In this document: positions 124 through 57,439 of the stretch, in pieces | Layout: every line of letters begins with the position of its first letter | Position numbering within the stretch: position 1 is the stretch's first letter | IMG/VR virus record: IMGVR_UViG_3300017759_003727 | Span: 12,074-76,073 of that record | Direction: 5' to 3' (one strand) | DNA length: 64,000 bases | DNA from: a virus | Position numbers and translations under genes: made by a program | The notes under the pieces: generated by a model | What the model saw: the letters and a program-made list of their open reading frames with translations, nothing else | The model's database searches: none | What the model was told of the DNA's origin: nothing

Positions 124-168
124 AATTTCATTTACACTATAATAACTTAAGATAGAAATTTTTCAATT

Positions 169-762
169 TTATACAAAACTATATGGGTTTTCGCCCTTTA
201 AACTAGACAAATCCAGATTTATAGCATTTTGTAAATCTATTATGGTTTTATCCCAATTATCAAAATCCCCTAAATAGTCAAATTTATCGTGGTTAGGTTG
301 CAATTCCTCATACAATTCATAAAAATCACTTTGAAAAATATCTTTTATTTGTTTGTTTTCACATAAGTGAACGAATTCGTCTTTTGTAAACTTAGTTAAT
401 GGTTCATACGATTTATAAAGATGTCTGACGTATTCTGAATTTGGGTTAGTTTTTAGGTAATTAATAGACCCAAAGTATTTTACGGCACAATAAAACTCTT
501 CAAATAGTTTATTTTGAGGTATTTTTATACCAAACCAAAAATCTCCAACTTGTTTATTGACTTTATGTGTTTGAAAAATTCCATATAAAAAAGAACTTCT
601 TCTAAAAACCGAATTATTTTGCGATATTTTTAATGGATTATCCTTAATTCCTCTTTTAAGAGAAAAAACTTCATGTATATGACTTGAATCTTTGAATTGT
701 TTCTGTATTAAGTCTAAAATTTTAGGATATAACCTACAAGGAGTCGCTTGGAATATTATCAT
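169..762 (-). CDS. Hypothetical protein
   Basis: 197-aa ORF co-directional with and overlapping the upstream gene; no motif recognised. Confidence 0.6.
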   Translation of the reverse strand: MIIFQATPCRLYPKILDLIQKQFKDSSHIHEVFSLKRGIKDNPLKISQNNSVFRRSSFLYGIFQTHKVNKQVGDFWFGIKIPQNKLFEEFYCAVKYFGSINYLKTNPNSEYVRHLYKSYEPLTKFTKDEFVHLCENKQIKDIFQSDFYELYEELQPNHDKFDYLGDFDNWDKTIIDLQNAINLDLSSLKGENPYSFV

Positions 763-1012
763 CTCTACTTATTTTCGGCTCAAATTGAAAAGCGATCCTG
801 CCAAAATTCTTATCTTTGTCCCCTATCCAAGCAGAGAACTCTATAAAATCGTCTCCCACTATAAAATCCAATATTTCAAGAAAAAAAGTTTCGTTCTGAA
901 ACTCTAATACATAGTTTTTATGGTATTTATAAGTTAAGACAGCTTCTCCATTAGCATCTTTTAGTCTATCGACTCCGTTATTTGTTCCTACTATTTTTAA
1001 ATTGCCCTTCAT
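734..1012 (-). CDS. Hypothetical protein (late-promoter class)
   Basis: 92-aa ORF; GTGTAA 8 nt upstream of the ATG. Confidence 0.65.
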   Translation of the reverse strand: MKGNLKIVGTNNGVDRLKDANGEAVLTYKYHKNYVLEFQNETFFLEILDFIVGDDFIEFSAWIGDKDKNFGRIAFQFEPKISRDDNIPSDSL

Positions 1013-1020
1013 AATTTAAT

Positions 1021-1593
1021 TTACACATATTTATATACAGCCCAACATTCCTTTTTTGATTGTGATTGAAAATATTTAGGAGTAGCAATAAATTTTTCTG
1101 ATACTAATCTATTTAAATGTTTCATTATGTTTTGTTGATATCCAAAATGATGACCACAATCATCAAGCATAACTATAGTATCTCTGTGGGATAAGCCTCT
1201 ACAATTAATCATATCATGATATGGCACATCTCCTAAATGACCACCATCAATAAAGATAAAATCATACGGAGCACTACTCATTGAGAATAAAACTTTTTTA
1301 GAGTCTCCAATAATAATTTTAAATCTATTTGGGTATTTGTTTTTTACAAAGTCGTAACAAGTAGTAACATAATGATGTTCTCCTATATCCACTGATGTGA
1401 CTTTGATGTCATCTCTTAAAGAAAGCATAAAATCAGAAGAGTGACCCGCGTTAAACCCTACCTCTAAAACATTTTTAATTGTTGGATCATTTTTAAATAA
1501 TTTTTTTAAAAAAGGTTTTTGGCCATTTATTCGACCCTCTTTTAATTGAATATTATTTCGAGATAAAAATAAGTTTAATGAGTTTTCTTCCAT
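1021..1593 (-). CDS. Class I SAM-dependent methyltransferase (Methyltransf_24-like)
   Basis: VLEVGFNAGHSS motif I, SVDIGEH, YDFIFIDGGH, VMLDD. Confidence 0.85.
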   Translation of the reverse strand: MEENSLNLFLSRNNIQLKEGRINGQKPFLKKLFKNDPTIKNVLEVGFNAGHSSDFMLSLRDDIKVTSVDIGEHHYVTTCYDFVKNKYPNRFKIIIGDSKKVLFSMSSAPYDFIFIDGGHLGDVPYHDMINCRGLSHRDTIVMLDDCGHHFGYQQNIMKHLNRLVSEKFIATPKYFQSQSKKECWAVYKYV

Positions 1594-2066
1594 ATTTGGT
1601 GGGGCAAATTTTCTATGTCGCTCATTTTTATGATAGAAATTAAATCTTTACGACCTTCTCTTTGATAACCTTTGTATAAAGCATCTCTGCTGTTTGTTAC
1701 TTTTTTGTTTAAATCACAAAGAGATTGAGCTAAACCTAACAAATAATTACGTTTGACAAGCAGAAAATCAGAAGCCCTTTCGAATGCTATGATGTCTACA
1801 GCAGACCTAAGCCAACCATCACGACCTTGGACATTTAAAAACTCAACCCAAACTAATTCATTTTGTTCGTTAGAATCAGACCGATTAATTTTTTTCTTTG
1901 CCTTAACATCTATAGTACCAAAAGATGTGTGATAATCAATGTGACGAAATTGATCCTCTCTGTTGGCTTTGCGGAAATTGGGGTCTCTGCGTTTAAGAAG
2001 AGGTGCGAAATTCTTCTCAACGCGTTGACCACGATTCCAACTAGAAGTGTTTTTCCAATTACTCAT
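1575..2066 (-). CDS. PD-(D/E)XK-fold endonuclease (resolvase/restriction-like)
   Basis: GQRVEKNF...HIDY...TIDVKAKK pattern; start MSNWK at 2066 preferred because it overlaps the upstream stop. Confidence 0.6.
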   Translation of the reverse strand: MSNWKNTSSWNRGQRVEKNFAPLLKRRDPNFRKANREDQFRHIDYHTSFGTIDVKAKKKINRSDSNEQNELVWVEFLNVQGRDGWLRSAVDIIAFERASDFLLVKRNYLLGLAQSLCDLNKKVTNSRDALYKGYQREGRKDLISIIKMSDIENLPHQIWKKTH

Positions 2067-2376
2067 CTTTAACAAAAAGACCATCAATCATTTTACCTTT
2101 ACGCTCTTTGATTTCATCATAAGCGTCAGCTAAACAATCAACTGAATCTAGACCAACAGTTTTAGCTAACAATATAATTGTTACTAACATATCTCCGATA
2201 CCATCAGCAACCTCTAGGATTGTTTCTTCTCCTTGTTCGAGTCGCTTTAGGGCATCAAGCGTTTCGTCAAGCTCTTCTTGAGTCTTGCTTATTTGCTTAA
2301 TGGCATTTGAATTTTCAAGGATATTTCGATCCTTCGCCCATTCGATAACTTTTGTTTCCAGTTCTTCGTATTTCAT
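2059..2376 (-). CDS. mazG: MazG-like nucleotide pyrophosphohydrolase
   Basis: QISKTQEELDETLDA...VADGIGDMLVTIILLA (EExxE...DxxGD all-alpha NTP-PPase motif). Confidence 0.85.
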   Translation of the reverse strand: MKYEELETKVIEWAKDRNILENSNAIKQISKTQEELDETLDALKRLEQGEETILEVADGIGDMLVTIILLAKTVGLDSVDCLADAYDEIKERKGKMIDGLFVKDE

Positions 2377-2798: not shown

Positions 2799-3878
2799 CT
2801 ATAAATTTAAATAATTATAAGGAGTTACGCAAGAAACTGAACCATCGCCATTTTCTGGTTTATAAATCCAAGCAAAATAACCAGTAACACCATCAACAAC
2901 TCCAGAAACATTTGCATCTTCTAAAATAGTATATTCTTTGTTTCCATTTTCGTCTGTTTTTATGTTATAGTTATATCTTAAAGATACATCTTCCGCATCT
3001 CCAGTTCCATCAATAAATTCTACACCAGATATACCAAACATACAAAATTTAGAATTTCTTTGTTGCTCTATCTGTCTTGTTGTATGGTCATTAATTGGAT
3101 TTTCGTAGTTGTATGTATAGTGAGAAGCTTTAGAAATTTTAACTCTATCTGCGCCTGCCATATCTTGCATCGGTAAAAAGTAGGCAACATCACTTGCCGC
3201 CTTAATTAAAGCGCCAGTTGGATTATAAAAACTTTGTCCAGTATTAATATTGTCTGATAAAACTTTTTTAAAAGCTCTAAAATGATTTAGTGTCCAACCT
3301 TGGCATCTTATGTGCGTTGGAGTGTGTCCAGGATAAGTGACTCCATCGACAACAAAATCTGGAAAATCACTTTGTGTTAAGGGTTTGTTACTATAAAAGT
3401 CTCTTTCGCTTTCTTTGTCTGCTGATACCCATTTTTGAGTAGAGGCGTACATCAATTTATCTTGACCCATTTCTCTAGTAACCCAATTAGCTGTATTTGA
3501 ATCATGCAGAAAATCATCGCCATCAACAATTCCACAAATACTGCCTGTATTTGATACATATTTATCAACTGCTATTTTTTGGTTTAATGCCGCACAATCT
3601 ATTCTTGTAGCATTTTCAATATAAATAATATCTTTGCCATTGGCTTCACCAGTCCAAATATTTGAAGATCCAGATTGATTTATACTACCAGAAAAATTTG
3701 AAAAACCTGTTATTTGATCAAATAAAATACTTTTAGATTCGTCTGTGGATGCGTCATTTATAAAAATAACACCCAAATCTGAATGACCTTGTTTTAATGT
3801 GCCCTTAATGCTTTTAGCTATATAATCCTCTGAATTATAAAATGCTGTTAAAATTATAAATTTATTTTCTAGACTCAT
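2799..3878 (-). CDS. Family 2 glycosyltransferase co-transcribed with tail-fibre-like genes
   Basis: IILTAFYNSEDYI...VIFINDASTD...GIVDGDDFL (GT-A DxD); 4-nt overlap with upstream structural gene. Confidence 0.8.
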   Translation of the reverse strand: MSLENKFIILTAFYNSEDYIAKSIKGTLKQGHSDLGVIFINDASTDESKSILFDQITGFSNFSGSINQSGSSNIWTGEANGKDIIYIENATRIDCAALNQKIAVDKYVSNTGSICGIVDGDDFLHDSNTANWVTREMGQDKLMYASTQKWVSADKESERDFYSNKPLTQSDFPDFVVDGVTYPGHTPTHIRCQGWTLNHFRAFKKVLSDNINTGQSFYNPTGALIKAASDVAYFLPMQDMAGADRVKISKASHYTYNYENPINDHTTRQIEQQRNSKFCMFGISGVEFIDGTGDAEDVSLRYNYNIKTDENGNKEYTILEDANVSGVVDGVTGYFAWIYKPENGDGSVSCVTPYNYLNL

Positions 3879-5740
3879 ATGCTATAATATTCTCCCATAT
3901 CTCCAGTGTATCTTTTTTGTTCATCGGTTTCTTCACGCAATGAATTTAAAACAAAAAATTCTTGAATTCCTCCGTCCCAAGGTTCTGACATATCGCTCGC
4001 AGCGCCAAGGTTTGTTGGTGCTGAATCATTATTTGCGCCATTTAATGCAAGTGAGTTAGTAACATTGCTACTGCTGATAATTTGAAGTCCACTGCCCTTA
4101 GAGCCAATTTGTAATGCTGATTTAGTACCATATCTTGAATCGCTAGAACCCGCTGTTTTTGAATCATGGAACAGGATAACTTGAGGTAGTGCGCTATTGA
4201 AGCCTTCATGATCTTCGTATGTCCCTTCATTTAGCATCCCAGAGGTAAAGGTAATTGGATTTGGAGGACTTCCCTTAAAGCTCATTTGATATGAATTCAC
4301 TGCAGTTTGAACGCTAATTGCACCATGCACAACAAAAGGACCATTACCTTGACTAATACCACCTCCATGAGCCATAGCTGCTTTTTCCGTAGCGTTTTGG
4401 GGTTCATCTACAGAACAAACAATTCCCAATGTTTTGCCTTCTGAACTTGTATTACCAACACTTTGTAACATGCCAGCATTTCCGTCTTCTTTAAATTTCA
4501 TCGTTGGCAAACCATCAACAGTATGTAAAGTTCCTCCAGTTCCTAGAGTTGGAGCTTTACTAGGGCTTGGTTGCGTCCAAATGGCAGTAACGCTTGTGTC
4601 AAAATTAGAACTAACGCTTCCTCCTTCTTTAATAGACCAACTTGTGTGCCCAGTTGGCCTGTTGTCTTTTGCGTCTGCAAGAGTGTTAGAGTATCCGTAA
4701 ACTAGTGGAGTACTATCACTTAAAGCATTTTGTTGTAAGCTTTGTATTTGATGTAATGGATTTCTCTGACTACCTGCCATTCTAGTTGCATTTGTAAAAA
4801 CCCAGCGTACTCCATAAGGACTATTAGAACCAAAATCATGTGGAAATAAAGCACTATAAGAAAAACCTCCACCCGCTGTCAGAGCGTATACTGGATATTC
4901 CTGGTTGCCTATAGTCACACCACTAAATAAAGCCCAATCATGCAAACCTCCATCATCATCAGTCTTGGCAAATCCAGCATAAGTGTTCGCAGAAGATGAT
5001 GCATCTGAAAAGGATAATCCTATACGTTCGCCGCTAATTGCATTGTTTCCAAATTGAAAAGGTACAACTCCGTCAACAGTAGTGCCATTTGGATTTGAAG
5101 AATATCCTGGATTTCCAGTAAATATTGATGAATCGCCTTGGGAATACCATTTTGTCACCCTCAAATCATTACTGAATTTATTATCAGTTGCGTTGCTACC
5201 TTGATTACTTAAATCCGAAAATTCTCCTAAATTAGTAGCACTTAAAGTTTCGGTATTGGAATTAAATCCTGCAAAAAACTCAACAATTTCAGAATCAGAA
5301 GCTATTTGTCCAGCGCTATTGAATTTAATGTCAACTTCTCTTAAGTCAAATCTTCTTTGGACTCTTATGCCGAAACCAGTATAATCTGGATTTATTTTTC
5401 TTAGTCCAAATAATTTGTCTGTATTTGAGAAAAAATCAAATAAAGCTGGGTTATCTCCACGATCAAGAAATTTAGTAATGTTTAGTGGCAAAAATCCAGC
5501 ATCTACTTCATCTGTTTTAAAAACACCTGTAAATGACTCATTCCCTAGCCTATTACTTATTGTTTTATTGTATTGCTTTATAGCTTTTTCTATAGCATGT
5601 AAATTTTGAGAATTACCAGTTGCATAATCATCCTTTAAAAAAGCTATTTTATCTACAACATTATCTTCGCCTTTGCCTGTTAAAGATAAGGTGGATTGTC
5701 CTCTAATTTTTTTTTCTAATTCATGTGGGTTATCTGCCAT
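3875..5740 (-). CDS. Virion structural / tail fibre-like protein with lectin-like (ConA/AbfB-catalytic-like) domain
   Basis: LFGLRKINPDYTGFGIRVQRRFDLREVDIKF motif seen in phage fibre lectin-like domains; G/S/T/N-rich; GTGTAA 10 nt upstream. Confidence 0.65.
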   Translation of the reverse strand: MADNPHELEKKIRGQSTLSLTGKGEDNVVDKIAFLKDDYATGNSQNLHAIEKAIKQYNKTISNRLGNESFTGVFKTDEVDAGFLPLNITKFLDRGDNPALFDFFSNTDKLFGLRKINPDYTGFGIRVQRRFDLREVDIKFNSAGQIASDSEIVEFFAGFNSNTETLSATNLGEFSDLSNQGSNATDNKFSNDLRVTKWYSQGDSSIFTGNPGYSSNPNGTTVDGVVPFQFGNNAISGERIGLSFSDASSSANTYAGFAKTDDDGGLHDWALFSGVTIGNQEYPVYALTAGGGFSYSALFPHDFGSNSPYGVRWVFTNATRMAGSQRNPLHQIQSLQQNALSDSTPLVYGYSNTLADAKDNRPTGHTSWSIKEGGSVSSNFDTSVTAIWTQPSPSKAPTLGTGGTLHTVDGLPTMKFKEDGNAGMLQSVGNTSSEGKTLGIVCSVDEPQNATEKAAMAHGGGISQGNGPFVVHGAISVQTAVNSYQMSFKGSPPNPITFTSGMLNEGTYEDHEGFNSALPQVILFHDSKTAGSSDSRYGTKSALQIGSKGSGLQIISSSNVTNSLALNGANNDSAPTNLGAASDMSEPWDGGIQEFFVLNSLREETDEQKRYTGDMGEYYSI

Positions 5741-5762: not shown

Positions 5763-6533
5763 TTAGAATTCTATTATTTTAAAGAAGCAGGTAACATTGC
5801 CAGTTTCAACCTCGTGGGGATTTGCTGCTGAATATGTGGCTAAAGAAAAATGTTGTCCTGTGCCCCAAGTATTGTGAGCTGTGGTGCCAGTTGCTAAAAA
5901 AACTTGATTTCGACTAACACTACTGCCGTCTGTGAATTTACAACCAGTGATTTCACCATTTTTACTATTCCCAATTAAAAGCCCGCTCCAACTGAAGTCA
6001 CTATCGGAAGCGATAGTATCAAAGTGCATAGCGGCTCTTAAAAATTGAATCTTTTTAAAGGGCACAGCGGCGCCTTGAAAATCCTGTACAAATCTTTGCC
6101 CAAGATATTGCCAAGTGCTATATGCACCTGTATTCCCCGCCGCGTACGTCGCAGAATTGGGAGGAAGAAGCGTTAAATTCCCCGCATCGTTATTAGGGCT
6201 CATTGAACCAGTATGAAGAAATGAATACTGAAGATCTGGCACTCCAGTAGAAAAGTTAGAAGTGCCTGTGTATGAAGAAAGTGTCCCTGTGGCGGTTTCT
6301 AAAATTTGTGTTTTTACATCAAGAGAGCCTGTAGCAAGAGCTAATACTCCAGTAGCCGCTAATAACTCTCCTGTTCGAGTTTGAATTCCGCCAATATCAT
6401 AATTACCACTTATTGTGTCTTCTATACTTTTAAAGGTTATTTTTTTAGTTATAGAAGCGTCGACAGCTACAAACAGATCTGTTGCAACTGGATCAGTAAA
6501 CGCTGTCAATTCTGTAATTTTTACTTCTGCCAT
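5763..6533 (-). CDS. Tail fibre-like structural protein
   Basis: N-terminal MAEVKITELTAFTDPVATDLFVAVD...TKKITF typical of fibre anchor segments; T/S/G-rich; GTGTAA 8 nt upstream. Confidence 0.65.
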   Translation of the reverse strand: MAEVKITELTAFTDPVATDLFVAVDASITKKITFKSIEDTISGNYDIGGIQTRTGELLAATGVLALATGSLDVKTQILETATGTLSSYTGTSNFSTGVPDLQYSFLHTGSMSPNNDAGNLTLLPPNSATYAAGNTGAYSTWQYLGQRFVQDFQGAAVPFKKIQFLRAAMHFDTIASDSDFSWSGLLIGNSKNGEITGCKFTDGSSVSRNQVFLATGTTAHNTWGTGQHFSLATYSAANPHEVETGNVTCFFKIIEF

Positions 6534-6541
6534 AAATATTA

Positions 6542-7054
6542 TTACACTATTTTTATTAAATTAATTTTAAAAAACTCTAATTCTTCAGTATCCATTGATT
6601 CGTCTCTTTCCATTTCTGGAAAGGCTTTTTTTAATAAATTTTGATAAATTTTTGACCTGTGCCTTTTTTTTAAAACAGGCAAAATAAAAGTATTGACACC
6701 TTTTTTATTTAAATCTTTGAAAGCTTCTATCGAAAGCGCTCTAAAAACTTTTTTAGAGTATTTCCCATACATGTGATTCCAGGAAAAAATTTCACATTTA
6801 AATGTTTCGTCTTTTATTACTCCATAAATTAAACATACTAATCCACCGTTATTGTGCGCGCTTAATTGATAAAGGTTTGGATCAAAGCGAATAGCATCAA
6901 AACCATTCAAACAATACATTAATTCTTTGTCGTCCATTAATTTAGAAAAATTGATTTTTATGCAATTTTTTAAGCTTTGTTTATTATATGTCTTGGACAG
7001 CTGATATATTTGATTATCTACTTTTATTTTAGTGTAATACATATTATGGCTCAA
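6542..7054 (-). CDS. Hypothetical protein, possible GNAT-like fold (start uncertain: 7054, 7042 or 6937)
   Basis: GLVCLIYGVIKDETFKCEIFSW...AFKDLNKKGVNTFILP pattern; 5' end overlaps the divergent gpL promoter. Confidence 0.45.
   Translation of the reverse strand: MSHNMYYTKIKVDNQIYQLSKTYNKQSLKNCIKINFSKLMDDKELMYCLNGFDAIRFDPNLYQLSAHNNGGLVCLIYGVIKDETFKCEIFSWNHMYGKYSKKVFRALSIEAFKDLNKKGVNTFILPVLKKRHRSKIYQNLLKKAFPEMERDESMDTEELEFFKINLIKIV
7032..7038 (+). promoter_or_regulatory. Putative late promoter GTGTAAT driving the gpL-K-I-J operon
   Basis: GTGTAA 8 nt upstream of ATG 7046; same geometry at 7 other genes. Confidence 0.7.
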
Positions 7055-8032
7055 GGTTTGAACAGAAAAAATGTAGGATCTGTAATGGATTTAAATCCCG
7101 ATGATTTATTGGAATTTTATTTAATTTATTATAATTTTCCTAGAGACAATTTCAACTATTTAGCCATATGCCCATCATTTAACCGAACCGACTTGAGTAA
7201 GGGGACAACAGATGGGAACGCCATAACATCTGCGCCCCATGTTCAGCAACTAATATGGCAAAAACAACAATACATATCCGTGGCTATGGAGGGCAATGGT
7301 TTTACTGTACAGGGGGATGAAGAATTACCTAGGCCTAATATAAAATTATCTAATAAAGATTTCTTTATGTCCAAATATCTTGCTACCTATGGTGATATGG
7401 TAGGGGCCAAGATCGTAAGAAAGAGAGTTTTTTCTAAATTTTTGGATGATGTTAATTTTTTACCCCACGCAAATCCTTATGGAACAGCTGATGAAGATGC
7501 TGGTTTTCCAGATGAGGTTTACTATATAAATAGAAAATTAACAGAAAATAAATCCTTTATTGAATTTGAACTAGCGACATCTTTAGAGTTAGAAAATATA
7601 AAAATTCCAAATAGAGTGGGTTTGTGTAGATATTGTTATTGGAATTATAGAGGTTATGGGTGTCAGTATAAAGGAGAACCTAAAACAGACTCAACTGGAG
7701 GAGCTTTGAATCCAACAGGAAATAAAGATTTGTGGCAAGGTACTGGTGTCGCATACAACACTGGAGATTACGTATTTTTATCAAATGAAACATATTCCAT
7801 AAGAGATGAAGATGAAATAGATATAATTAACGGCCCATCTATACAGCCATTAAAAACTTATTATGTTTGCACCGATTACCACATATCAACAGAAAACGAT
7901 AGACCATCTGAATCTAGCAAATGGACAGAAGATGTTTGTCAAAAATCACTTAAAGGGTGTAACATAAGATACGGAAATGATTTGCCGTTTGGAGGATTCC
8001 CAGGAACTTATGAATACAATGCACAAATCTAA
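7046..8032 (+). CDS. Phage minor tail protein L (lambda gpL-like)
   Basis: LPRPNIKLSN...GAKIVRKRVFSKFLD...EVYYINRK...EFELAT...CYWNYRGYGCQYKG...CQKSLKGCNIRY...LPFGGFPG with Fe-S cysteines; start moved from 6977 to 7046 on promoter geometry. Confidence 0.92.
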   Translation: MAQGLNRKNVGSVMDLNPDDLLEFYLIYYNFPRDNFNYLAICPSFNRTDLSKGTTDGNAITSAPHVQQLIWQKQQYISVAMEGNGFTVQGDEELPRPNIKLSNKDFFMSKYLATYGDMVGAKIVRKRVFSKFLDDVNFLPHANPYGTADEDAGFPDEVYYINRKLTENKSFIEFELATSLELENIKIPNRVGLCRYCYWNYRGYGCQYKGEPKTDSTGGALNPTGNKDLWQGTGVAYNTGDYVFLSNETYSIRDEDEIDIINGPSIQPLKTYYVCTDYHISTENDRPSESSKWTEDVCQKSLKGCNIRYGNDLPFGGFPGTYEYNAQI

Positions 8033-32485: not shown

Positions 32486-32492
32486 ATGACCT

Positions 32493-32520
32493 ATAGTGCA
32501 TAAAATATTTAAAATGTCAA
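32493..32520 (-). promoter_or_regulatory. Sigma70-type promoter TTGACA-N16-CACTAT
   Basis: -10-like hexamer ends 7 nt before the dnaB ATG. Confidence 0.5.
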
Positions 32521-34002: not shown

Positions 34003-35115
34003 TTACACAAGTTCTCCAATATTGGATTTAAAATAATTTATTAAAAATTTAGAAAGCTCTTCATTTTCTTCTACCATTTTAAACAAATTAGCTTCTCCTT
34101 GAACTTTCTCTGGTAGCTCTGAAGCTACTTCCGCTACAAGTTCTTTAAATTCTTCTCCAATAGTAATCCAAGCACCTTTTTTGGTGACAAATTCCCACAT
34201 ATACAATAAGTCAACAAGCTCTTTCTCTACCCAAATAGACTTACCGCCAACTCTACCATATCTGATTGGATACATAATAGTGTTATTAGTTTTTTCGTTT
34301 GGAGATTTTTTAATAGTAACTTTAGCCCAATGACCAATAATTGGATTGGTTTTGGGGTCTGGTTGTTTTTTGGTTGGATCTTGTAGAATCATATCTGACT
34401 TAAATCTAGGCTCAAACTCCATAATGTAATTAGCAAAGTGTAATAATGCATTACCGCCTGTTGCTGACGTTTGACGTATCGGAGCTTTGGAGTATGGGTC
34501 TAGTTTGATGTCTGCCCTCACTTGACTGATGAAAATGGCCATATGGCCCCTTTTTGCAAGAGATATTGACATTCTCTTCATAAAATTAGCTGCAATAACT
34601 GCTCCACCAGCTACTTTATTTGAATCATAGAAGGATTTATCTATATCTACTTGCGATATTAAGCCATCAACAGAGTCTAAAACAAAACAGTATTTAAATT
34701 TATCTTCATTTTGCTCTACTAGAGTCTTAATGCCGTCAACAACCACTTCATAAATATTACTTTCAAATACGAAACAAGTACCAGCAACCCATTGTTTTGC
34801 GTCATATACAAACTTAATGCCAGATCTAGCTACCATTTCATTGGATAAACGACCTTCAGCTTTGATATAAAAGCCTTTTGCATCTTTTTGTGTATTTAGC
34901 ATGTTCTTCATGACCTCTAATGCTGCTGATGTTTTACCACCTTCATTCATTCCGACAAACCTGTGTAACCCTGGCCCGAATCCGCCATTTAGGTTTAAAT
35001 CAAGCTGAAGCGATCCGCTTGATGCTTTATAATCAACTGATTCCTCAAAGTTGTAATGTTGTCCCTTTTTATCTTTTAGGAACTTGTCTAGTATTTCTGA
35101 ATCTTTATCACTCAT
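34003..35115 (-). CDS. recA: RecA/UvsX-like recombinase
   Basis: SSGSLQLDLNLNGG; GMNEGGKT; YIKAEGRL; VLDSVDGL; ISQVR; TGGNALLHFA. Confidence 0.9.
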   Translation of the reverse strand: MSDKDSEILDKFLKDKKGQHYNFEESVDYKASSGSLQLDLNLNGGFGPGLHRFVGMNEGGKTSAALEVMKNMLNTQKDAKGFYIKAEGRLSNEMVARSGIKFVYDAKQWVAGTCFVFESNIYEVVVDGIKTLVEQNEDKFKYCFVLDSVDGLISQVDIDKSFYDSNKVAGGAVIAANFMKRMSISLAKRGHMAIFISQVRADIKLDPYSKAPIRQTSATGGNALLHFANYIMEFEPRFKSDMILQDPTKKQPDPKTNPIIGHWAKVTIKKSPNEKTNNTIMYPIRYGRVGGKSIWVEKELVDLLYMWEFVTKKGAWITIGEEFKELVAEVASELPEKVQGEANLFKMVEENEELSKFLINYFKSNIGELV

Positions 35116-48773: not shown

Positions 48774-48782
48774 TTATACGCA

Positions 48783-48810: not shown

Positions 48811-48817
48811 TCTATTT

Positions 48818-49003
48818 TTAAGTCTTTCTGTGCTCTCTCCAGTCTTTTCTATGTAATCTGACCCATGTTAATAAAGCTTTTTCAAAACCTATATCTTCTT
48901 GGGCTTTTTGTGATTCTATCCACTTAAGTTTTAATATTTCTTCTCTTTCCGCTAAGAACTCTTGATAAAGAGTAGATCCTGTGGCGAAATGACTAGACAT
49001 CAA
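48818..49003 (-). CDS. DUF4032-like small protein
   Basis: STLYQEFLAEREEILKLKWIESQKAQEDIGFEKALLTW matches my recollection of a Verrucomicrobia-typical family. Confidence 0.7.
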   Translation of the reverse strand: MMSSHFATGSTLYQEFLAEREEILKLKWIESQKAQEDIGFEKALLTWVRLHRKDWREHRKT

Positions 49004-49989: not shown

Positions 49990-49997
49990 GGTATTAT

Positions 49998-50588
49998 TTA
50001 CACATTTTTAAGTTTAAATATATATTTTAATTGATTATTTGGTGAAATTTCTTCTGCAAAGAGAAAATATGGAGACAGAATACTAAAAAGAACCTCAAAT
50101 TCTATTTTTTTACTTATTCCTAATTTATTGAATTGAGCTTTTATTTCTATTTCTTTTATTTTAGTTTTATTAAAATTTATACCTTTTATAACCTCAGATT
50201 CATAACCTTCAACATTTAAATACAGTTTTTCTATTTCTAGTATGTTTATTTCTTCTAGTATTGCTTGCAGTGTAGATGCTGAACATTTATGTTTTTTAGC
50301 AGAATGTATTTCTATTTGTTCGCTTACAAAATCTTCTTTTACATCTAAAACGCTACATTGCTCTAGGGAATGTTTTTCGTTTAAAATTATATAATTATCT
50401 TTATACTCTGAAGAAACTAACGCTTTGTTGATTAAAATATTTTTCTCTGTTCTGTTTTGTTTTAATCTATCAAATGAATATGGGTGGGGTTCGATCAGTA
50501 TACAACATATGTCTTCATAACTATCACACCAAGAAGTGACGCCTTGAAACAAGCCATCCTGGGCACCAGCTTCTATTACATAATGCAT
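49998..50588 (-). CDS. FkbM-family methyltransferase
   Basis: VIEAGAQDG; ILIEPH; INKALVS; LYLNVEGYESEVIKG. Confidence 0.8.
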   Translation of the reverse strand: MHYVIEAGAQDGLFQGVTSWCDSYEDICCILIEPHPYSFDRLKQNRTEKNILINKALVSSEYKDNYIILNEKHSLEQCSVLDVKEDFVSEQIEIHSAKKHKCSASTLQAILEEINILEIEKLYLNVEGYESEVIKGINFNKTKIKEIEIKAQFNKLGISKKIEFEVLFSILSPYFLFAEEISPNNQLKYIFKLKNV

Positions 50589-50875
50589 TAGCCCCAAAGA
50601 TTATAAGCTATAATACCTGCAATTGCAGTAAGCAAACCGCTAATAAAAATCCAAGATAGTTTATTAAATGTAGTCATGAAAGCCTTTGTTTCTCCAACAG
50701 TTCTTTCCATTTCCATCATTCTTGAATTCATATCATCTATTTTTTTGAACAATACATCTGTAAGTGTGCCTAATTGAATTAGTTTTTCTTCAGCTCTAGC
50801 GATTGAAATAACAGCATCAGATAGTTTGTCTATCTTCTCCTCCATTCTCGTTAATCTATCTTCATTTTCGGACAT
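50588..50875 (-). CDS. Coiled coil plus C-terminal TM protein (XhlA/holin-like)
   Basis: RLTRMEEKIDKL...WIFISGLLTAIAGIIAYNLWG; GTGTAA 9 nt upstream. Confidence 0.6.
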   Translation of the reverse strand: MSENEDRLTRMEEKIDKLSDAVISIARAEEKLIQLGTLTDVLFKKIDDMNSRMMEMERTVGETKAFMTTFNKLSWIFISGLLTAIAGIIAYNLWG

Positions 50876-50893
50876 TAAAATGTTTTACACTTA

Positions 50894-52564
50894 TTAACCC
50901 TCGCATGATGAACATTCTAATAAATTTCTACTTAATTCTTGAGATGGATTTGTTCCTCTTTGATAGTACAAAGTTTTAACACCCTGTTCCCATGCAAAGA
51001 TCATAAGTTGACTCACGTCTTTAGGGGAAGATTTTGGATGCACCATGATATTCAAGCTCTGAGATTGGTCAATAAACTTTTGACGTTGTGCGGCTTGAAT
51101 TATAACTTCTTTTTGGCTAATTTCACCAAAAGTTTTATATACAGCTTTTTCTTCATCCGTTAAAAAATCTAAATGTTGTACTGATCCACCTTTTACTAGA
51201 ATTGATTTCCATATTTGTGGAGTATTTTTTTCTTTTTCTTCTAATAAAGACTCCAAATAAGGGTTCTTATATGTGAATTTTCCTTTAGCTAAGTCTTTAA
51301 CAAAGTAATTAGAATTTAAGGGCTCGATACTTGGAGAAACTTGACCTAAAATAAAAGAGCTTGAAGTTGTTGGAGCAATAGCCATTGTGGTTACATTTCT
51401 AACACCATATCCTTTTAATAAAGAAGGTTCGCCATAAACTTTAGCGAGTTCTTTTGTCGCATATTGAGTTTTTTCTTGAATTGTTTTATGAATTTCTGAA
51501 TTTAATAATTTAGCTTCAAAAGATTCAAAGGCAATTGATTTTGATTGTAATAAAGAATGCCAACCTAGCACGCCTATTCCTAAAGCTCTTTGATTTTTAG
51601 CAAAGTTTCTAGGGGCTTCCATAAATGGTAAATTTTTACATTTATCTATAAATTCTGTCATAACTGCATCTAGAAAATATGTTAATATTTCTGGTGCGTC
51701 TGTATCTTTCCAGTCGTCATAATGAAGTAAATTCATTGAAGATAGATTACAAACAAAAGACTCATCCTTGTTTGAATGCAAAGCTATTTCAGAACAAAGA
51801 TTACTAGCATATATTTCTAAGCCTTTATCTTGATATACTGGAGGCGCATTTCTGTTCATGGCATTTTTAAAGAAGACGTAAGGATAACCGCTTTCAAATC
51901 TTTTTTTGATTATCGATCCCCAAATTTTTCTTTTATCTTTATCTCCAGCAAGCATTTCTTTCATCCATGTATCGCTAATGGTTACCCCGATAGAAAGATT
52001 TTGAATAGCGTTACCGTCACTTCTTATCTGTAAAAATTCTAATATATCTGGATGTTCTACTGGTAAATAAGCAGCGAAACTACCTCTGCGGACATTGCTT
52101 TGAGAGACGACATTTGCCACCGTTTCAAAAATTTCCAGAAAATGAACTGGGCCATTTGATTTACCACCACTACTTATTTCGGCACCTCTTTCTCGAAGCT
52201 CTCCAAAATATCCAGAAGTGCCTCCACCGTTTTTAGTCATCATACCTACTTCAGTGCTTTTCTTTAATATTTCTTCCATTTTATCTTCCACAAAGGAACC
52301 AAAGCAAGAAATAGGGAGACCTCTGTCTTTACCAAAATTAGCCCAAATTGGAGATGATAAAGAATACCACCCCTTGGCCATATAGCTTTGAAACTTTTCA
52401 GAAAACCCAGGAATAGATAAAAGGCTTTGTGCTTTGTCAGCAATAACTTTTATTCTTTCTTCTGGAGTCTCTCCTTCTTCTAGGTAACCTCTTTTTAGGA
52501 AAGTTCTAGAATCTTTGTTTAACCAATAAAAATCTTTCATATTAAAATAAATCGTCTTCGTCAA
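50894..52564 (-). CDS. nrdA: Class I ribonucleotide reductase alpha subunit, short form without ATP cone (NrdAi-like)
   Basis: LPISCF; GGGTSG; ASNLCSE; FVCNLSS; MAIAPTTSSS; KTLYYQR. Confidence 0.93.
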   Translation of the reverse strand: MTKTIYFNMKDFYWLNKDSRTFLKRGYLEEGETPEERIKVIADKAQSLLSIPGFSEKFQSYMAKGWYSLSSPIWANFGKDRGLPISCFGSFVEDKMEEILKKSTEVGMMTKNGGGTSGYFGELRERGAEISSGGKSNGPVHFLEIFETVANVVSQSNVRRGSFAAYLPVEHPDILEFLQIRSDGNAIQNLSIGVTISDTWMKEMLAGDKDKRKIWGSIIKKRFESGYPYVFFKNAMNRNAPPVYQDKGLEIYASNLCSEIALHSNKDESFVCNLSSMNLLHYDDWKDTDAPEILTYFLDAVMTEFIDKCKNLPFMEAPRNFAKNQRALGIGVLGWHSLLQSKSIAFESFEAKLLNSEIHKTIQEKTQYATKELAKVYGEPSLLKGYGVRNVTTMAIAPTTSSSFILGQVSPSIEPLNSNYFVKDLAKGKFTYKNPYLESLLEEKEKNTPQIWKSILVKGGSVQHLDFLTDEEKAVYKTFGEISQKEVIIQAAQRQKFIDQSQSLNIMVHPKSSPKDVSQLMIFAWEQGVKTLYYQRGTNPSQELSRNLLECSSCEG

Positions 52565-53513
52565 ATGATTTGTCTTTTTTAGAATATTCGACAGGACGCT
52601 TGAAGAAAAAGTCAGTGGCGGAATTGCCTAAAACATCTTCATCAAACCACATAGTAAGGTTTATTTTATCTTTGTCAACATCAAAAACCTTATCAAAGCC
52701 AATTTGTTCTAAAGATTCATTTAATCTATTTTTTATAAATTCTTTTAATATATCAGCATTTAATCCCTCTCTATCGTAATCGCCAATAATCCAATCGATA
52801 ATATTAGACTCTGCCTCAAATGCACATTGAGCTTCTTCCTTAAGTCTATCTGGTAAGTCGGCGTTGAATAATTCTGGATATTCTTCTCTTAATGTATTGA
52901 GAATTTTTGTCCCAACCAGACCGTGAATATTTTCCTCGCGACTTGTATAAGCTACTTGTTGAGCTGTATCTTTTAGCACATTATCGAATCTGTTAAACCA
53001 ATTAATGATATAGAACTGGCTAAATAGCGATACATTTTCTACAAAAAGAGTAAACAAAATCATAGAATATATATATTGTTTTTTGTCATCCTTGTAGCAT
53101 TTTTCTAGGTATTTTTTTAAGTAGTCAATACGACCCTTAATAATTGGTAATTTTAGGTTTTCCTCAAAAACATCCTCTAGCTCTAGAACACTCAAAAGGC
53201 GCTCATAAGCATTATTATGTATAACCTCAATATTGGCCATTACATAGCCAAGGTCAGTAATACCTGGATGGGGTAAATGATTCCCGAGATTTGCCCAAAA
53301 TTTCTTTACAGAAACCTCTACTTGACCAATAGCAGATAGAGTCCTTTTGACTATTTCTCTCTCTTGATCATTGAGATTTACCTTAAAATCCTGCACGTCA
53401 GATTGGAAATTAAATTCCTTGTCAGTCCAGAAGCCATTATGCATGGCGTTTACAAATTCATCCGTCCACGGGTAGAGATTTGGTTTTCTTGATACTTGTT
53501 CCTCGAATAGCAT
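52542..53513 (-). CDS. nrdB: Class I ribonucleotide reductase beta subunit (class Id-like)
   Basis: IGQVEVSVKKFW; EVIHNNAY; FVENVSLFSQF; SREENIH; FFFKRPVEY. Confidence 0.93.
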   Translation of the reverse strand: MLFEEQVSRKPNLYPWTDEFVNAMHNGFWTDKEFNFQSDVQDFKVNLNDQEREIVKRTLSAIGQVEVSVKKFWANLGNHLPHPGITDLGYVMANIEVIHNNAYERLLSVLELEDVFEENLKLPIIKGRIDYLKKYLEKCYKDDKKQYIYSMILFTLFVENVSLFSQFYIINWFNRFDNVLKDTAQQVAYTSREENIHGLVGTKILNTLREEYPELFNADLPDRLKEEAQCAFEAESNIIDWIIGDYDREGLNADILKEFIKNRLNESLEQIGFDKVFDVDKDKINLTMWFDEDVLGNSATDFFFKRPVEYSKKDKSFDEDDLF

Positions 53514-53741
53514 ATGTAATAAGAATTTACACCGTGATTTGAATTAGTCAAGCTTTTTAGGTAAAAAATAAAAAATATTTTTTTTACTTGATTTTTGTAA
53601 GTTTCGATGTATAATAAGTTCTATATTGAGCGAGACCGAAGGGGGAGCGAAATATATATTAGTATTTATATATATATAAATTATATAAAATATATAAAAA
53701 AAGTATTGACATTCTTTCAGAAGTGTCATACATTAATTTTT
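53514..53741. promoter_or_regulatory. Divergent control region with three sigma70-like promoters and a 50-nt AT tract
   Basis: Minus TTGACT-16-TAAATT (53551-53524); plus TTGATT-16-TATAAT (53588-53615); plus TTGACA-17-TACATT (53706-53734); 53651-53700 has a single G. Confidence 0.75.
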
Positions 53742-54035
53742 ATGTTAATTAAATTAGATGGAGAAGACTTAAATTTCTACTTATGCAGCAGTTCCGATTG
53801 GAGTATAGTTGTCTTAGCAGAAGATGAGAGAACTGCAGCTTCAGTATCTTTAAAGAAGATTATATCTGAACTGGAATTAGATGCAAATGTTTCAGCAGCT
53901 ATTAGAGTAAAGAAAATAGATGAAAGACTTGAAAATTCAGATTTTCTAATTAGAATGGATGAAACGCTTTCCGACATAGGAATGCATAAGGAATCAAAAG
54001 CATTAAGAGAGATATTAGATAATGATAGGTATTAG
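53742..54035 (+). CDS. Hypothetical protein
   Basis: Start MLIKLDG 7 nt after TACATT; the in-frame extension to 53607 is low-complexity and overlaps promoters. Confidence 0.7.
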   Translation: MLIKLDGEDLNFYLCSSSDWSIVVLAEDERTAASVSLKKIISELELDANVSAAIRVKKIDERLENSDFLIRMDETLSDIGMHKESKALREILDNDRY

Positions 54036-54588
54036 TGGAATAGCCAGGTCTGGAAAAGACACATTAGCAAAAAGCTTTAAAAGAATAATTGAGCAAAAAT
54101 TAGAACTTGATGTAGAAATCATATCACTAGCTAATCAGCTCAAAGAAGACTTAGATGATTTAATTATTAAAAATTTTGGATTTTCTGCTTTTTCGGATAA
54201 TACGAAAGAAAAGAATCTAATAAGGCCTATTCTTGTTTCTTATGGAGAGTGTATGAAAGAAAAATTCGGAAACCATGTTTGGGTTGAAAAATTAATGGAC
54301 AAAAGAGATAAAGATAAGTTTACAATTGTACCAGATATTAGATTTGATTTTGAAGCTATATTTTTTGCAGAAAAATTAAACGCAGAAATAATTCATATTT
54401 CTTTAGAGGGCAATGATTATGTTAACGATATAGAGAAGGTGAATGATCCACTTGTTCAAGAATTATCAAATATAAAACATACTTGGCCAGTCTTACACCC
54501 AGATCAAGTTGAATTATGTGATGCTCATGCAGATATATTATTACAAATGATGCCAGATTATAAAATAGAAAAATGGAAGACGATATAA
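54022..54588 (+). CDS. Deoxynucleoside monophosphate kinase
   Basis: MIGISGIARSGKDT; LANQLKE; RPILVSYG; IVPDIRF. Confidence 0.85.
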   Translation: MIGISGIARSGKDTLAKSFKRIIEQKLELDVEIISLANQLKEDLDDLIIKNFGFSAFSDNTKEKNLIRPILVSYGECMKEKFGNHVWVEKLMDKRDKDKFTIVPDIRFDFEAIFFAEKLNAEIIHISLEGNDYVNDIEKVNDPLVQELSNIKHTWPVLHPDQVELCDAHADILLQMMPDYKIEKWKTI

Positions 54589-55154
54589 ATTTAATAAATC
54601 AAGTAAAATCTAAAAAAGATAACGATTCCCTAAGGGAATTAATCAATAGACATTCTGGTATATATGTTGATATGGTCAACAAGTACATGCCAGAATCTAT
54701 TGAAGGTAATCATAGGCAAGATATATTAGATGAAAAAAATTATTCAATATACGATGCTGTTATAAAATTTGATGAATCAAAAAACGCTAAACTAAGTACA
54801 TATGTAGGCAACATAGCAAAATGGAAGTGTTTAAATATTTATAATAAAAATAAAAAATTTCCACATAACTCTTTATTTAATGATGATAAACCTTCTGATA
54901 GAATTGATCACGAAAACTTCATCGTTCAACCAGACATAAGTAAAATAGAAAACACAGAAAATTTAAACAAAATATATAAATTTGTAAGTAAAGCAAAAGA
55001 CCCAAGAGTTAAAAAGATATTTAAAATGCGTTATTCTAAAGGCAATAAAACAACACCTTGGAAAAAAATTGCGAAAAAGCTTGACTTATCAATTCAAGGA
55101 TGTATAAATATACACAATAACTATTTAAAGGAGATCAAAAAATATGTTCAATAA
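54573..55154 (+). CDS. Phage RNA polymerase sigma factor (sigma70 family, regions 2 and 4)
   Basis: DSLRELINRHSGIY...IYDAVIKFDESKNAKLSTYV (region 2); IFKMRY...WKKIAKKLDLSIQGCINI (region 4 HTH). Confidence 0.85.
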   Translation: MEDDINLINQVKSKKDNDSLRELINRHSGIYVDMVNKYMPESIEGNHRQDILDEKNYSIYDAVIKFDESKNAKLSTYVGNIAKWKCLNIYNKNKKFPHNSLFNDDKPSDRIDHENFIVQPDISKIENTENLNKIYKFVSKAKDPRVKKIFKMRYSKGNKTTPWKKIAKKLDLSIQGCINIHNNYLKEIKKYVQ

Positions 55155-55506
55155 ATCAATAATCATGGGTAATCTCGCAAGAGATCCAGACAATAAGAAG
55201 GTTGGAGACAACCAAGTGACACGGTTAGTAGTAGCCGTTAATGATGTAGTGAAGAAAGATAAAGCTCATTACATTGATGTAGAAACGTGGAACAAGACCG
55301 CTGAAAACTGCGCTAAATACTTAGCGAAGGGGCGTAAGGTTCTAGTAGAGGGTCGTTTATTCCAAGATATTTGGGAAAAAGACGGTAAGAAAAATTCTAA
55401 AATTTACATTAAGGCTGACAATGTTCAGTTTCTTGGTGGAAAACAAGATGGTGAGGCAAAGCAGCAAGCTGCGCCAGTTGGAGCGGATGAAGATATTCCA
55501 TTCTAA
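55144..55506 (+). CDS. ssb: Single-stranded DNA-binding protein
   Basis: NKSIIMGNLARDP; IDVETWNKTAE; GRKVLVEGRL; acidic tail DEDIPF. Confidence 0.95.
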   Translation: MFNKSIIMGNLARDPDNKKVGDNQVTRLVVAVNDVVKKDKAHYIDVETWNKTAENCAKYLAKGRKVLVEGRLFQDIWEKDGKKNSKIYIKADNVQFLGGKQDGEAKQQAAPVGADEDIPF

Positions 55507-56589
55507 ATGAATTTAGAAGCTCCAATTAATTCACTTTCCTTCGGGAATGTTACCTATAACATCCTCCGCCAATTCTGGCGGAAGGGTGTTAACCTTTCTT
55601 TATTTCCTATAGGTGGAAATTTAGACATTACTGCCTATAAAGATACTATTGATTTAGAATTTGGCAAATGGATCAGCGAAAGCGCGAACAACGCTAATAT
55701 AAATTTAGATCCAGATGCACCTGCCTTTAAACTATGGCATTTAAATGGTTCTCAATCAAGAATCGGAAAAAAACAATTATTGTATACATTTTATGAATTA
55801 GATGAACCTACAGAATCTGAAGTAAATCTAGCAAAATTCCAAACAAAAACTATTTTTTCATCAAAATATGCATCCGATCAATTTAAAAAATTTGGAGTTG
55901 ATTGTGACCATATTCCAATTGGATTTGATGAAGATTTCCATAAAACAGATAAAAAATATCTTGACCCAGAAATTATACATTTTGGTTTAATGGGCAAATT
56001 TGAAAAACGTAAACACACAGAACGAATCATAAAGCTTTGGTTATCAAAGTATGGCAATAATAGAAAATACCAATTAAGTATTTGTGTTACTAATCCATTT
56101 ATAAACAATGAAGAAATGAACAATATACTTTCAAATATTTTCCAAGGTAAAGGTTATTGTAATGTTAATGTACTGCCTTATCTTAAGACAAATTCAGAGG
56201 TTAATGATTTTTTAAATGCAATTGATATTGATTTAACTGGACTTAGCGGTGCAGAAGGTTGGAATCTTCCAGCTTTTAATGCTACATGTCTTGGTAAATG
56301 GAGTCTTGTTTTAAATGAAACATCCCACAAAGATTGGGCTAACGAAGATAATTCAATTTTAATTAATTCATCTGGGAAAGAACCTTGTTATGATGGTCAT
56401 TTTTTTACTCAAGGTTCCGCCTATAATCAAGGAAATATATATACATGGAACAGCGACATTGTGTCTCAAGCTATGGACAAAGCTGTCTCTAAAAAGGGAC
56501 AAATTAACACAGCTGGAGAGTCCTTAAAGGACAAATTTTCTTACGAAAAAACCGCAACCCGCTTACTTACTGAGCTAGAAGCTATTTAG
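55507..56589 (+). CDS. GT4-like glycosyltransferase
   Basis: FGLMGKFEKRKHTE; LTGLSGAEGWNLPAFNA. Confidence 0.75.
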   Translation: MNLEAPINSLSFGNVTYNILRQFWRKGVNLSLFPIGGNLDITAYKDTIDLEFGKWISESANNANINLDPDAPAFKLWHLNGSQSRIGKKQLLYTFYELDEPTESEVNLAKFQTKTIFSSKYASDQFKKFGVDCDHIPIGFDEDFHKTDKKYLDPEIIHFGLMGKFEKRKHTERIIKLWLSKYGNNRKYQLSICVTNPFINNEEMNNILSNIFQGKGYCNVNVLPYLKTNSEVNDFLNAIDIDLTGLSGAEGWNLPAFNATCLGKWSLVLNETSHKDWANEDNSILINSSGKEPCYDGHFFTQGSAYNQGNIYTWNSDIVSQAMDKAVSKKGQINTAGESLKDKFSYEKTATRLLTELEAI

Positions 56590-56624
56590 CATTATTGGCA
56601 CAGCAATTGCAAATAAATAAGCCT

Positions 56625-56957
56625 ATGTATAATTCATTATTTAACACTATATTTAACGACTCGTATGATTCATTTGGAAGTTTTAAAACTGACAGTGTAA
56701 AGTCTGCGGGTGATGTGTATCAAGTTAATCTAATTTTACCAGGTATTAAAAGAAAAGACTTGTCCTTAAAAGCTACCGAAAAACATTTATCTATCTTCCT
56801 TAAACAAGAAGATGATAAAGAGCAGTTATATAGGAAAGTAACACTTGGTGGTTTAGTTGATACAAAAACAATCTCCTCAAAGCTTGAAGATGGGATACTT
56901 GAAATTACTCTTCCAAAAAAAGAAGTTCAAGACTCTATTCAAATTGAGGTCAAATAA
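56625..56957 (+). CDS. Small heat-shock protein (Hsp20)
   Basis: YQVNLILPGIKRKDLSL; VDTKTISSKLEDGILEITLPKK. Confidence 0.88.
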   Translation: MYNSLFNTIFNDSYDSFGSFKTDSVKSAGDVYQVNLILPGIKRKDLSLKATEKHLSIFLKQEDDKEQLYRKVTLGGLVDTKTISSKLEDGILEITLPKKEVQDSIQIEVK

Positions 56958-56964
56958 ACGGCTT

Positions 56965-57005
56965 GGCCCTCTGTATGTGTAAAAACATATAGGGGGTCAT
57001 TTTTT
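56965..57005 (+). terminator. Hairpin terminator after hsp20, with GTGTAA in the loop
   Basis: 14-bp stem GGCCCTCTGTATGT / ACATATAGGGGGTC (3 G-U pairs) followed by ATTTTTT. Confidence 0.7.
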
Positions 57006-57025
57006 AAAAAAATTAAAATAAATTT

Positions 57026-57439
57026 ATGCCATTATACTTATACGAAAACAAAGAAACCGAAGAGGTTGTAGAGATCCTACAGAGCATGTCTGAGGTTCAC
57101 GAGTATCATGGCATAGATGGAACAGAGAAAGGCCTCTGGAGGCGTGTTTTTGTCAATCCTAACGTATCTGTAGATACAAAAGTTGATCCGTTTAACAAAC
57201 AATCCTTTATTCAATCAACTGTTGGAAAAAATGACACTTATGGGGATTTACAAAATAGAGCAGCAGAAGCATCGCAAGCTAGAGCTCAAAGATATGATGG
57301 TAAAGACCCAGTAAAAGAATCGTATTACAAAGATTACCACAAGAAAACAAATGGTAAATTACACCCACATCAACAAAAAGAGCGATTCAATAAAGCTAAA
57401 GAAAAAGCAAATAAAGCTGGTATAAATATAGAGTTATAA
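57026..57439 (+). CDS. FmdB-like protein
   Basis: MPLYLYENKETEEVVEILQSM...WRRVF matches the FmdB-like N-terminus, but the Zn-ribbon cysteines are absent. Confidence 0.65.
   Translation: MPLYLYENKETEEVVEILQSMSEVHEYHGIDGTEKGLWRRVFVNPNVSVDTKVDPFNKQSFIQSTVGKNDTYGDLQNRAAEASQARAQRYDGKDPVKESYYKDYHKKTNGKLHPHQQKERFNKAKEKANKAGINIEL

Follow-up and report, generated by a model that had tools for sequence, protein, structure and literature searches.

GTGTAA words abutting start codons in a marine phage contig: a probable single-element promoter class and its likely phage sigma factor

The hexamer GTGTAA, found a few nucleotides upstream of many start codons in the contig of an uncultured marine tailed phage analyzed here, very probably acts as a promoter that gives rise to leaderless or near-leaderless mRNAs. 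The window, that is, the whole stretch of DNA that was analyzed, comprises 64,000 nucleotides and corresponds to bases 12074-76073 of one 82,910-bp virus contig (G000; IMG/VR record IMGVR_UViG_3300017759_003727; ~32% GC), and positions given below are those of the window unless otherwise stated. The product of the sigma factor gene at 54573-55154 is the reader of GTGTAA that we favor, with some reserve, judging from the co-occurrence of gene and motif, the lack of an alternative enriched word, and how poorly the motif matches host sigma70 promoters. The reading as a whole, in which a single-element promoter of the -10 type yields near-leaderless mRNAs and is read by the phage sigma factor, appears moderately probable to us. 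An earlier note on this DNA had listed 13 GTGTAA sites and interpreted them as late promoters recognized by this sigma factor. All 13 are present on the strands given there, including the eight with a gap of exactly 8 nt to the ATG and those with gaps of 9, 10, and 13 nt, the last of these before nrdB (Table 1).

GTGTAA is not enriched overall in the window, where 27 copies are found against 30.2 ± 5.6 expected. Contig-wide, nine of its 33 copies have an ATG exactly 8 nt downstream, and it ranked first in an unbiased hexamer-by-position scan of 101 gene starts over the 82,910 bp, being located 5-13 nt before the ATG in 12 genes vs. 0.18 expected (p ~1e-18). Variants with one mismatch were not enriched before starts (2 vs. 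2.8 expected), and neither the scan of this contig nor those of IMG/VR loci (see below) revealed another position-enriched word that could serve as the promoter of this sigma factor. The Shine-Dalgarno (SD)-like words AAAGGA and GAGGAT were enriched separately, before other genes of the contig, indicating that the host uses SD sequences.

The same positional preference is seen in related contigs. In a set of 80 IMG/VR contigs with a sigma factor of 40-63% identity (18 close and 62 more distant loci), GTGTAA was again the top hexamer before starts, both in the close loci (47 vs. 0.57 expected) and in the distant ones (78 vs. 1.5 expected). It adjoins ATGs even in contigs whose sigma factor is only 32% identical; since the motif is unchanged down to this level of identity, a search for co-variation of sigma factor and motif had nothing to compare. 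The pattern GTGTAA-N8-11-ATG occurs 20 times in G001, a relative of 112,801 bp, and 17 times in G002, against two occurrences of the reversed control pattern in each. Among syntenic metagenome contigs, the motif is retained in spite of diverged flanks before the orthologues of the tape measure gene, the 95-aa gene at 50588-50875, the DUF5824 gene (in L001, L002, L004, L005, L009, L010, L011, and G001), and nrdB, where the composite arrangement TTGACW-16-TAAATT plus GTGTAA is kept in L001, L003-L005, L009, L010, L012, and G001. Two phages without this sigma factor, HTVC008M (1-50 kb, 34% GC) and phiEco32 (15-45 kb), showed no GTGTAA near starts in the regions scanned, and the same method recovered SD words in both of them and pieces of TATAAATA in HTVC008M.

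The distance between motif and ATG has a hard floor, with no cases at 7 nt, 42 at 8 nt, 36 at 9 nt, 18 at 10 nt, and 23 at 11 nt, followed by a tail to 14 nt. This floor would be explained if the ATG cannot precede a fixed transcription start. The start codons differ as well: those located 8-11 nt after the motif comprise 85 ATG, 2 GTG, and no TTG, and those after SD-like words comprise 60 ATG, 6 GTG, and 22 TTG. AUG is required for leaderless initiation, and the ATG-only starts after the motif therefore fit this mode of translation. The 8-nt gap itself is A/T-rich and too short for an SD sequence. The element TGTAAW ends 7 nt (modal) before the ATG, exactly as the TAnnnT -10 hexamer of host-type promoters does; its description in the earlier note as a -10-like hexamer with G in place of A(-11) agrees with this shared register and with the invariance of the G among 108 non-redundant sites. 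A family-wide secondary peak is found at a gap of 26 nt. Upstream of rIIB in L007 (6517-6591 in genome coordinates), TTGACA-16-TAGTAT is followed by a GTGTAA 24 nt before the ATG, with AAGGAAAA in between, and this site is an exception with a leader.

The logo of the 108 sites shows that the conserved part is confined to WWWWA-GTGTAA-WW. Farther upstream, 109 functional sites have A/T-only positions about 10 bp apart (-5 to -1, -16/-15, and -26/-25 from the first G), which are absent from 305 intragenic GTGTAA copies. Since phasing with the helical turn belongs to double-stranded DNA, this ~10-bp periodicity points to a signal at the DNA level. No -35 word emerged upstream of the functional sites in either the logo or the upstream analysis, and for the sites of this contig the earlier statement that no TTGAC box is found except at nrdB is correct.

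The distribution of the motif over transcription units also favors a promoter. It heads 22% of the first genes after a strand switch vs. 8% of co-directional genes (odds ratio 3.1, p = 2e-7), a bias shared by canonical promoters (17% vs. 3%) and expected of a promoter, because a new transcript must begin at such places. Of the four clear plus-strand units of the contig, three are headed by GTGTAA and one by a TTGACA promoter; the minor tail gene at 7046-8032, for example, is the first gene of the plus-strand tail operon and lies at a strand switch. The arrangement at 22946, where the motif directly follows a terminator, is also found in G001. Register, 8-nt floor, ATG-only starts, strand-switch enrichment, terminator, phasing, and conservation in relatives all support the promoter interpretation of the earlier note. 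Two of its sites are doubtful as promoters: 37 nt separate the copy at 34003 from a porin-like gene that has an AGGAGG of its own, and the copy at 56977-56982, in the loop of a terminator hairpin, is probably not a promoter; L003 and L005 carry a different terminator, without GTGTAA, at this position.

Canonical TTGAC(A/T)-N16-18-TAnnnT promoters likewise adjoin start codons in this contig. The gap from the end of their -10 element to the ATG is 7 nt in eight genes and 6 nt in another two; family-wide, the modal gap is likewise 7 nt, seen in 27 genes. As the host-type -10 abuts their ATGs, these first genes of operons appear to be built for leaderless mRNAs. In the contig, this class includes the genes for a DnaB-like helicase, a PHP-domain protein, and rIIA, a run of small early open reading frames (ORFs), and the first gene of the operon that contains the sigma gene; the block of small early ORFs in G001 has TTGACW promoters in place of GTGTAA. 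At 21118-21165 the two classes stand back to back in a 37-nt divergent gap, where GTGTAA serves the plus strand and TATAAT the minus strand, the latter ending 8 nt before the ATG of the gene at 20667-21125.

The fixed distance between -10 and ATG improves the annotation of start codons. It points to starts at 28441 (not 28447) for the PHP-domain gene, at 35459 for the gene at 35112-35480, and at 53742 (not 53607) for the first gene of the sigma operon. For the gene following the motif at 132-137, the start would be 123 and the frame would differ from that of the longest ORF; the overlapping longer ORF, which starts directly after the motif, looks spurious, and the ATG chosen in the earlier note seems the better start because its 161-aa membrane-like ORF is conserved in G001.

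The protein encoded at 54573-55154 is, as far as its sequence and its modeled fold allow it to be classified, a diverged two-domain member of the sigma70 family, and it is predicted to bind core RNA polymerase and to direct initiation. The earlier sigma call is borne out by a match to PHROG 351 (sigma factor; E = 3.8e-8), by matches of 22 of 24 homologues to Pfam Sigma70_r2 (best E = 1.5e-6), and by the family profile, which aligned with sigma factors only among PDB sequences and did so over regions 2-3. The AF2 model (pLDDT 77) consists of an N-terminal four-helix domain, a disordered linker, and a helical C-terminal domain (122-192). All top matches of the model in Foldseek were sigma factors, with full-length alignments to sigmaH, sigma32, SigI, sigmaB, and sigmaE, although at TM scores of only 0.3-0.43. 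No Pfam region 4 match was obtained. The HMMER alignment to SigA shows no conservation of the tryptophan pair of region 2.3, which would fit an altered -10 specificity. The family is large, with 780 clusters at 50% identity and hundreds of homologues in aquatic metagenomes.

From these observations, we propose that (W)WWWA-GTGTAA-WW would be a single-element promoter of the -10 type for middle and late genes, both in this phage and in a large clade of aquatic phages, with TGTAAW standing where the -10 hexamer belongs. Transcripts would begin 8-9 nt past GTGTAA, either at the A of the ATG itself or immediately upstream of it, and the resulting mRNA, leaderless or with a leader of 1-5 nt, would be translated without an SD sequence. 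Early and replication genes would be expressed from host-type TTGACA-N16-18-TAnnnT promoters of the same geometry, one of which would drive the operon containing the phage sigma gene. The phage sigma factor would then take the place of sigma70 on the core polymerase of the host and recognize the GTGTAA sites, which sigma70 should read poorly because G replaces the key A(-11) and there is no -35 box. The composite promoter of nrdB would permit both early and late expression.

Several points weigh against this proposal. The sigma protein itself matches Sigma70_r2 only at E = 0.019, below the Pfam threshold. Its putative C-terminal helix-turn-helix (HTH) is strongly conserved, with SIQGCINIHN invariant, yet there is no conserved -35 word, and the proposal does not account for what this domain contacts. 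Many gaps measure 10-14 nt, and not every one of these mRNAs would therefore be leaderless in the strict sense; the host is assumed to be able to translate leaderless mRNA. All related contigs were recruited via the sigma gene, and hence they offer no comparison with sigma-less members of the clade. As for transcripts, one seawater metatranscriptome contained 6% of the sampled words of 49000-50900, but the match consists of five contig pieces of 32-142 nt that are uninformative on starts and strand, and no RNA dataset was listed as matching 48000-57500.

The poor fit to sigma70 has to be weighed against the view that GTGTAA is read by the host RNA polymerase after all, either with sigma70, possibly assisted by a small co-factor of the phage, or with one of the host's alternative sigma factors, while the phage sigma serves other sites. 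AsiA and MotA of T4 are examples of phage co-factors that aid the host sigma70, and a conserved gene for a Zn-ribbon "transcriptional regulator" is located near the sigma gene here. TGTAAW shares four or five of the six positions of TATAAT, the nrdB motif overlaps a good host-type promoter (TTGACT-16-TAAATT), and the TGTAAC of L012 is preceded by a TTGACC at a distance of 17-18 nt. However, A(-11) is the base most needed by sigma70 (region 2), and it is this position that is occupied by an invariant G; there is neither a -35 box nor a TGn extended -10 in the right register, and the conserved phage sigma would be left with no visible promoter class of its own. The motif is also unlike any consensus of sigma32, sigma28, sigmaE, or sigma54 known to us, which counts against a host alternative sigma factor. 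Reading by a host sigma factor is unlikely in our judgment. The motif could not be accommodated as an extended -10 sigma70 promoter (TGnTAnnnT), since -11 is G in the TGTAAW register; in the TAAWWN/TAAWWT register the adjacent TG would need to lie one base farther away, and T(-7) lacks conservation (43 T vs. 40 A among the 108 sites), so that only the nrdB composite fits. The promoter of a phage single-subunit RNA polymerase was rejected too, with only ~7 bp conserved and no polymerase gene found.

A distance of 8-11 nt to the AUG is also like that of SD sequences, and many GTGTAA copies lie in tight co-directional gene junctions, as would be expected if the word acted in RNA as an SD substitute, a translation enhancer, or an endonuclease site at which mRNA is trimmed near the AUG. 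GTGTAA is, however, not complementary to the conserved 3' end of 16S rRNA, and the phage has AAAGGA and GAGGAT before other genes. Action in RNA would moreover leave unexplained why the word is enriched three-fold where a new transcript must start, why it follows a terminator, why its surroundings are phased in the manner of double-stranded DNA, why it sits in the register of true -10 elements, and why its starts are the ATG-only ones that suit leaderless initiation; we consider it very improbable. Termination-coupled re-initiation at the TAA of the motif was rejected because this TAA is the stop of an upstream ORF only at 1021, 6542, 34003, and 49998 and not at the other listed sites. The possibility that a phage DNA-binding regulator uses GTGTAA as an operator beside start codons, with no role of the word as a polymerase element, would suit the short and invariant core and the inverted pairs seen in two divergent regions (TTTACAC-N5-GTGTAAA near genome position 81016-81032). 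But most sites occur singly and point in the direction of the gene, the logo has no dyad symmetry, the hard 8-nt floor would be unexpected, and the target genes would be left without any recognizable promoter, and to this reading we give hardly any credence.

Among known systems, the closest analogue of the proposed promoters is that of phiEco32, whose phage sigma gp36 reads a single -10 element, tAATGTAtA, with no -35 and with starts 6-8 bp downstream (PMC8948821). The likeness extends to a phage sigma expressed from a host-type promoter, to one -10 element without a -35, and to the TGTA core, and the start distance matches the 8-9 nt that the geometry of GTGTAA would imply. The two sigma families nevertheless have no detectable homology (hhalign probability 0.2%, E = 0.35), and gp36 is without a recognizable region 4 (PMC8948821), unlike the present sigma with its conserved, putative C-terminal HTH domain. 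In the 15-45 kb of phiEco32 that were scanned, the starts show SD words, and its promoters are not described in the papers cited as abutting start codons. No gp79-like co-factor was identified in the present contig. A gene for a dNMP kinase lies next to or near the sigma gene both here (54022-55154) and in phiEco32 (L093, genes 34-36), the sigma factors being without detectable homology. Salmonella phage 7-11 has a phage sigma with region 4, gp47, to which the present sigma with its putative region 4 may be likened, and it also has a promoter word containing GTAA, its late promoters being GTAAtg-(16)-aCTA (PMC8948821); these are bipartite, with the GTAA word as the upstream, -35-like part, whereas GTGTAA is the sole element here and sits at -10.

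In the use of a -10 element at a fixed distance of a few nucleotides before the AUG without an SD sequence, these phages resemble Deinococcus-Thermus, where -10 elements adjacent to ORFs are common, are read by the host sigma, and lead to leaderless expression (PMC12340547). Leaderless middle and late mRNAs are likewise reported for Thermus phage phiYS40 (summarized in PMC3594737), a phage with most of its later mRNAs leaderless. In the present contig the -10 ends ~6-8 nt before the start, AUG is nearly exclusive, and SD sequences are lacking at these starts, which is the same leaderless geometry. The Deinococcus-Thermus and phiYS40 systems use the host primary sigma with TAnnnT-type elements; here a host-type class exists together with a separate GTGTAA class and a phage sigma. 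No description of GTGTAA promoters was found in the literature.

The late promoters of T4, TATAAATA, are read by gp55 together with gp33 and the sliding clamp, and they too form a -10-only late class read by a phage sigma-like protein. The earlier note had pointed out a difference of one base from the T4 core; the likeness is superficial, as position 2 is an invariant G and not A, the ATA tail is not conserved (only W W N follows GTGTAA), and the sigma does not appear gp55-like. No gp55-type family appeared in the Pfam and PHROG scans of this sigma, which was not compared directly with gp55, and the second, C-terminal domain of the model argues against a region-2-only sigma of the T4 gp55 type. 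HTVC008M, a T4-like pelagimyophage, has pieces of TATAAATA and no GTGTAA. These pieces are enriched only 5-13 nt before its ATGs, and the late mRNAs of HTVC008M may have very short leaders too.

The GTGTAA targets in the contig are tail operons, two fibre-like genes, the DUF5824 gene, small membrane-like proteins, a ferredoxin-like gene, and nrdB, and the tape measure gene just outside the window is also headed by the motif. In G001, they are tail genes, the tape measure, nrdB, and an operon spanning PhoH, the large terminase, and a scaffold-like gene; a further copy precedes a 650-aa gene, a putative portal. The content of tail and packaging genes agrees with the "late" promoter of the earlier note, but nrdB and PhoH are also targets, and "middle/late," inferred from gene content, is the fairer label. 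The positions of these and of the other features discussed are listed in Table 1.

Table 1. Positions in the window of GTGTAA sites, the sigma factor gene, and other features.
Feature	Position	Strand	Description
GTGTAA	132..137	-	8 nt to ATG at 123; 161-aa membrane-like ORF running off the window start
GTGTAA	1021..1026	-	8 nt to ATG of gene 734-1012; TAA of the motif doubles as stop of the upstream gene
GTGTAA	5751..5756	-	10 nt to ATG of 621-aa gene 3875-5740
GTGTAA	6542..6547	-	8 nt to ATG of 256-aa gene 5763-6533
GTGTAA	7032..7037	+	8 nt to ATG of minor tail gene 7046-8032
GTGTAA	21149..21154	+	8 nt to ATG of gene 21163-21798
GTGTAA	22946..22951	-	8 nt to ATG of gene 21795-22937; directly after hairpin 22956-22977 and T run
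Early-class example	32486..32520	-	TTGACA-16-CACTAT, 7 nt, ATG of DnaB-like helicase gene 30965-32485
GTGTAA	32789..32794	-	8 nt to ATG of 87-aa gene 32517-32780
GTGTAA (uncertain promoter)	34003..34008	-	37 nt upstream of porin-like ATG; overlaps recA stop codon
GTGTAA	49998..50003	-	8 nt to ATG of DUF5824 gene 49000-49989
GTGTAA	50885..50890	-	9 nt to ATG of 95-aa gene 50588-50875; retained before the orthologue in relatives
nrdB composite promoter	53524..53551	-	TTGACT-16 nt-TAAATT (host type) overlapping GTGTAA 53527-53532, 13 nt to ATG at 53513
Host-type promoter heading sigma-gene operon	53706..53744	+	TTGACA-17-TACATT, 7 nt, ATG at 53742
Phage sigma (P0001), 193 aa	54573..55154	+	Two-domain sigma70-family protein
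Terminator hairpin, 15-bp stem	56964..56999	+	Terminator of HSP20; loop contains GTGTAA 56977-56982

A wider proposal can be put forward only tentatively, as one that is less likely than not to hold: that early and late transcription units alike are almost all expressed as leaderless mRNAs in a large clade of uncultured aquatic tailed phages, whose sigma factors form hundreds of clusters, and that the clade switches between classes by means of a private two-domain sigma factor reading a -10-like element with G(-11) and no sequence-specific -35. If true, this would amount to a new chemistry of -10 recognition, with a G at the position where A(-11) is otherwise universal, and streamlined marine hosts would either translate leaderless mRNA efficiently or be reprogrammed to do so. 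The 193-aa sigma and its 7-bp element would be a compact orthogonal pair, widespread in ocean viromes and testable in vitro. A regulatory program, from host-type leaderless early promoters through the phage sigma to GTGTAA middle and late promoters, would be legible in uncultured phages. Two questions follow: by what means a marine host translates leaderless messages in such numbers, and how a -10 without A(-11) is melted by a sigma factor.

Marine viral and seawater metagenomes contain the same DNA as the window, and the clade is one of low-GC marine phages, probably with a proteobacterial host. No cultured relative was found: a search for near-identical DNA among phages with 49000-57500 gave no match, tblastn of the sigma among phages gave one weak match to a Staphylococcus phage only, and tblastn among phages with the 32%-identical homologue gave none. 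Searches for related loci with the 621-aa protein (3875-5740) and with protein P0250 returned nothing. The contig encodes a lambda-like tail-tip set including a central-fibre protein of 2475 aa, rIIA/rIIB, a DnaE-type polymerase, a DnaB-like helicase, a Clp-like ATPase, NrdAB, SSB, a dNMP kinase, and HSP20. It is probably incomplete, because syntenic relatives of 92-115 kb carry a head module that is missing here, and further GTGTAA sites would be expected past its right end. Compared with G001, it stops just before the region that encodes PhoH, the large terminase, a putative portal, scaffold, and capsid in relatives.

The orthologues of the 95-aa gene in L001, L002, L005, and L006 have a weak match to DUF7201. 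The 137-aa protein encoded at 57026-57439 (+) has an N-terminal Zn-ribbon match to a "transcriptional regulator" (PHROG 385), and its gene adjoins that of HSP20 in all relatives; the protein may be a transcription co-factor. A perfect sigma-54 type -24/-12 promoter, TTGGCACAGCAATTGCA, is located at ~56590-56612 (+) before the HSP20 gene (56625-56957) and is conserved in L001, L003, L005, L011, and G001, which suggests a host that has RpoN and an enhancer-binding activator.

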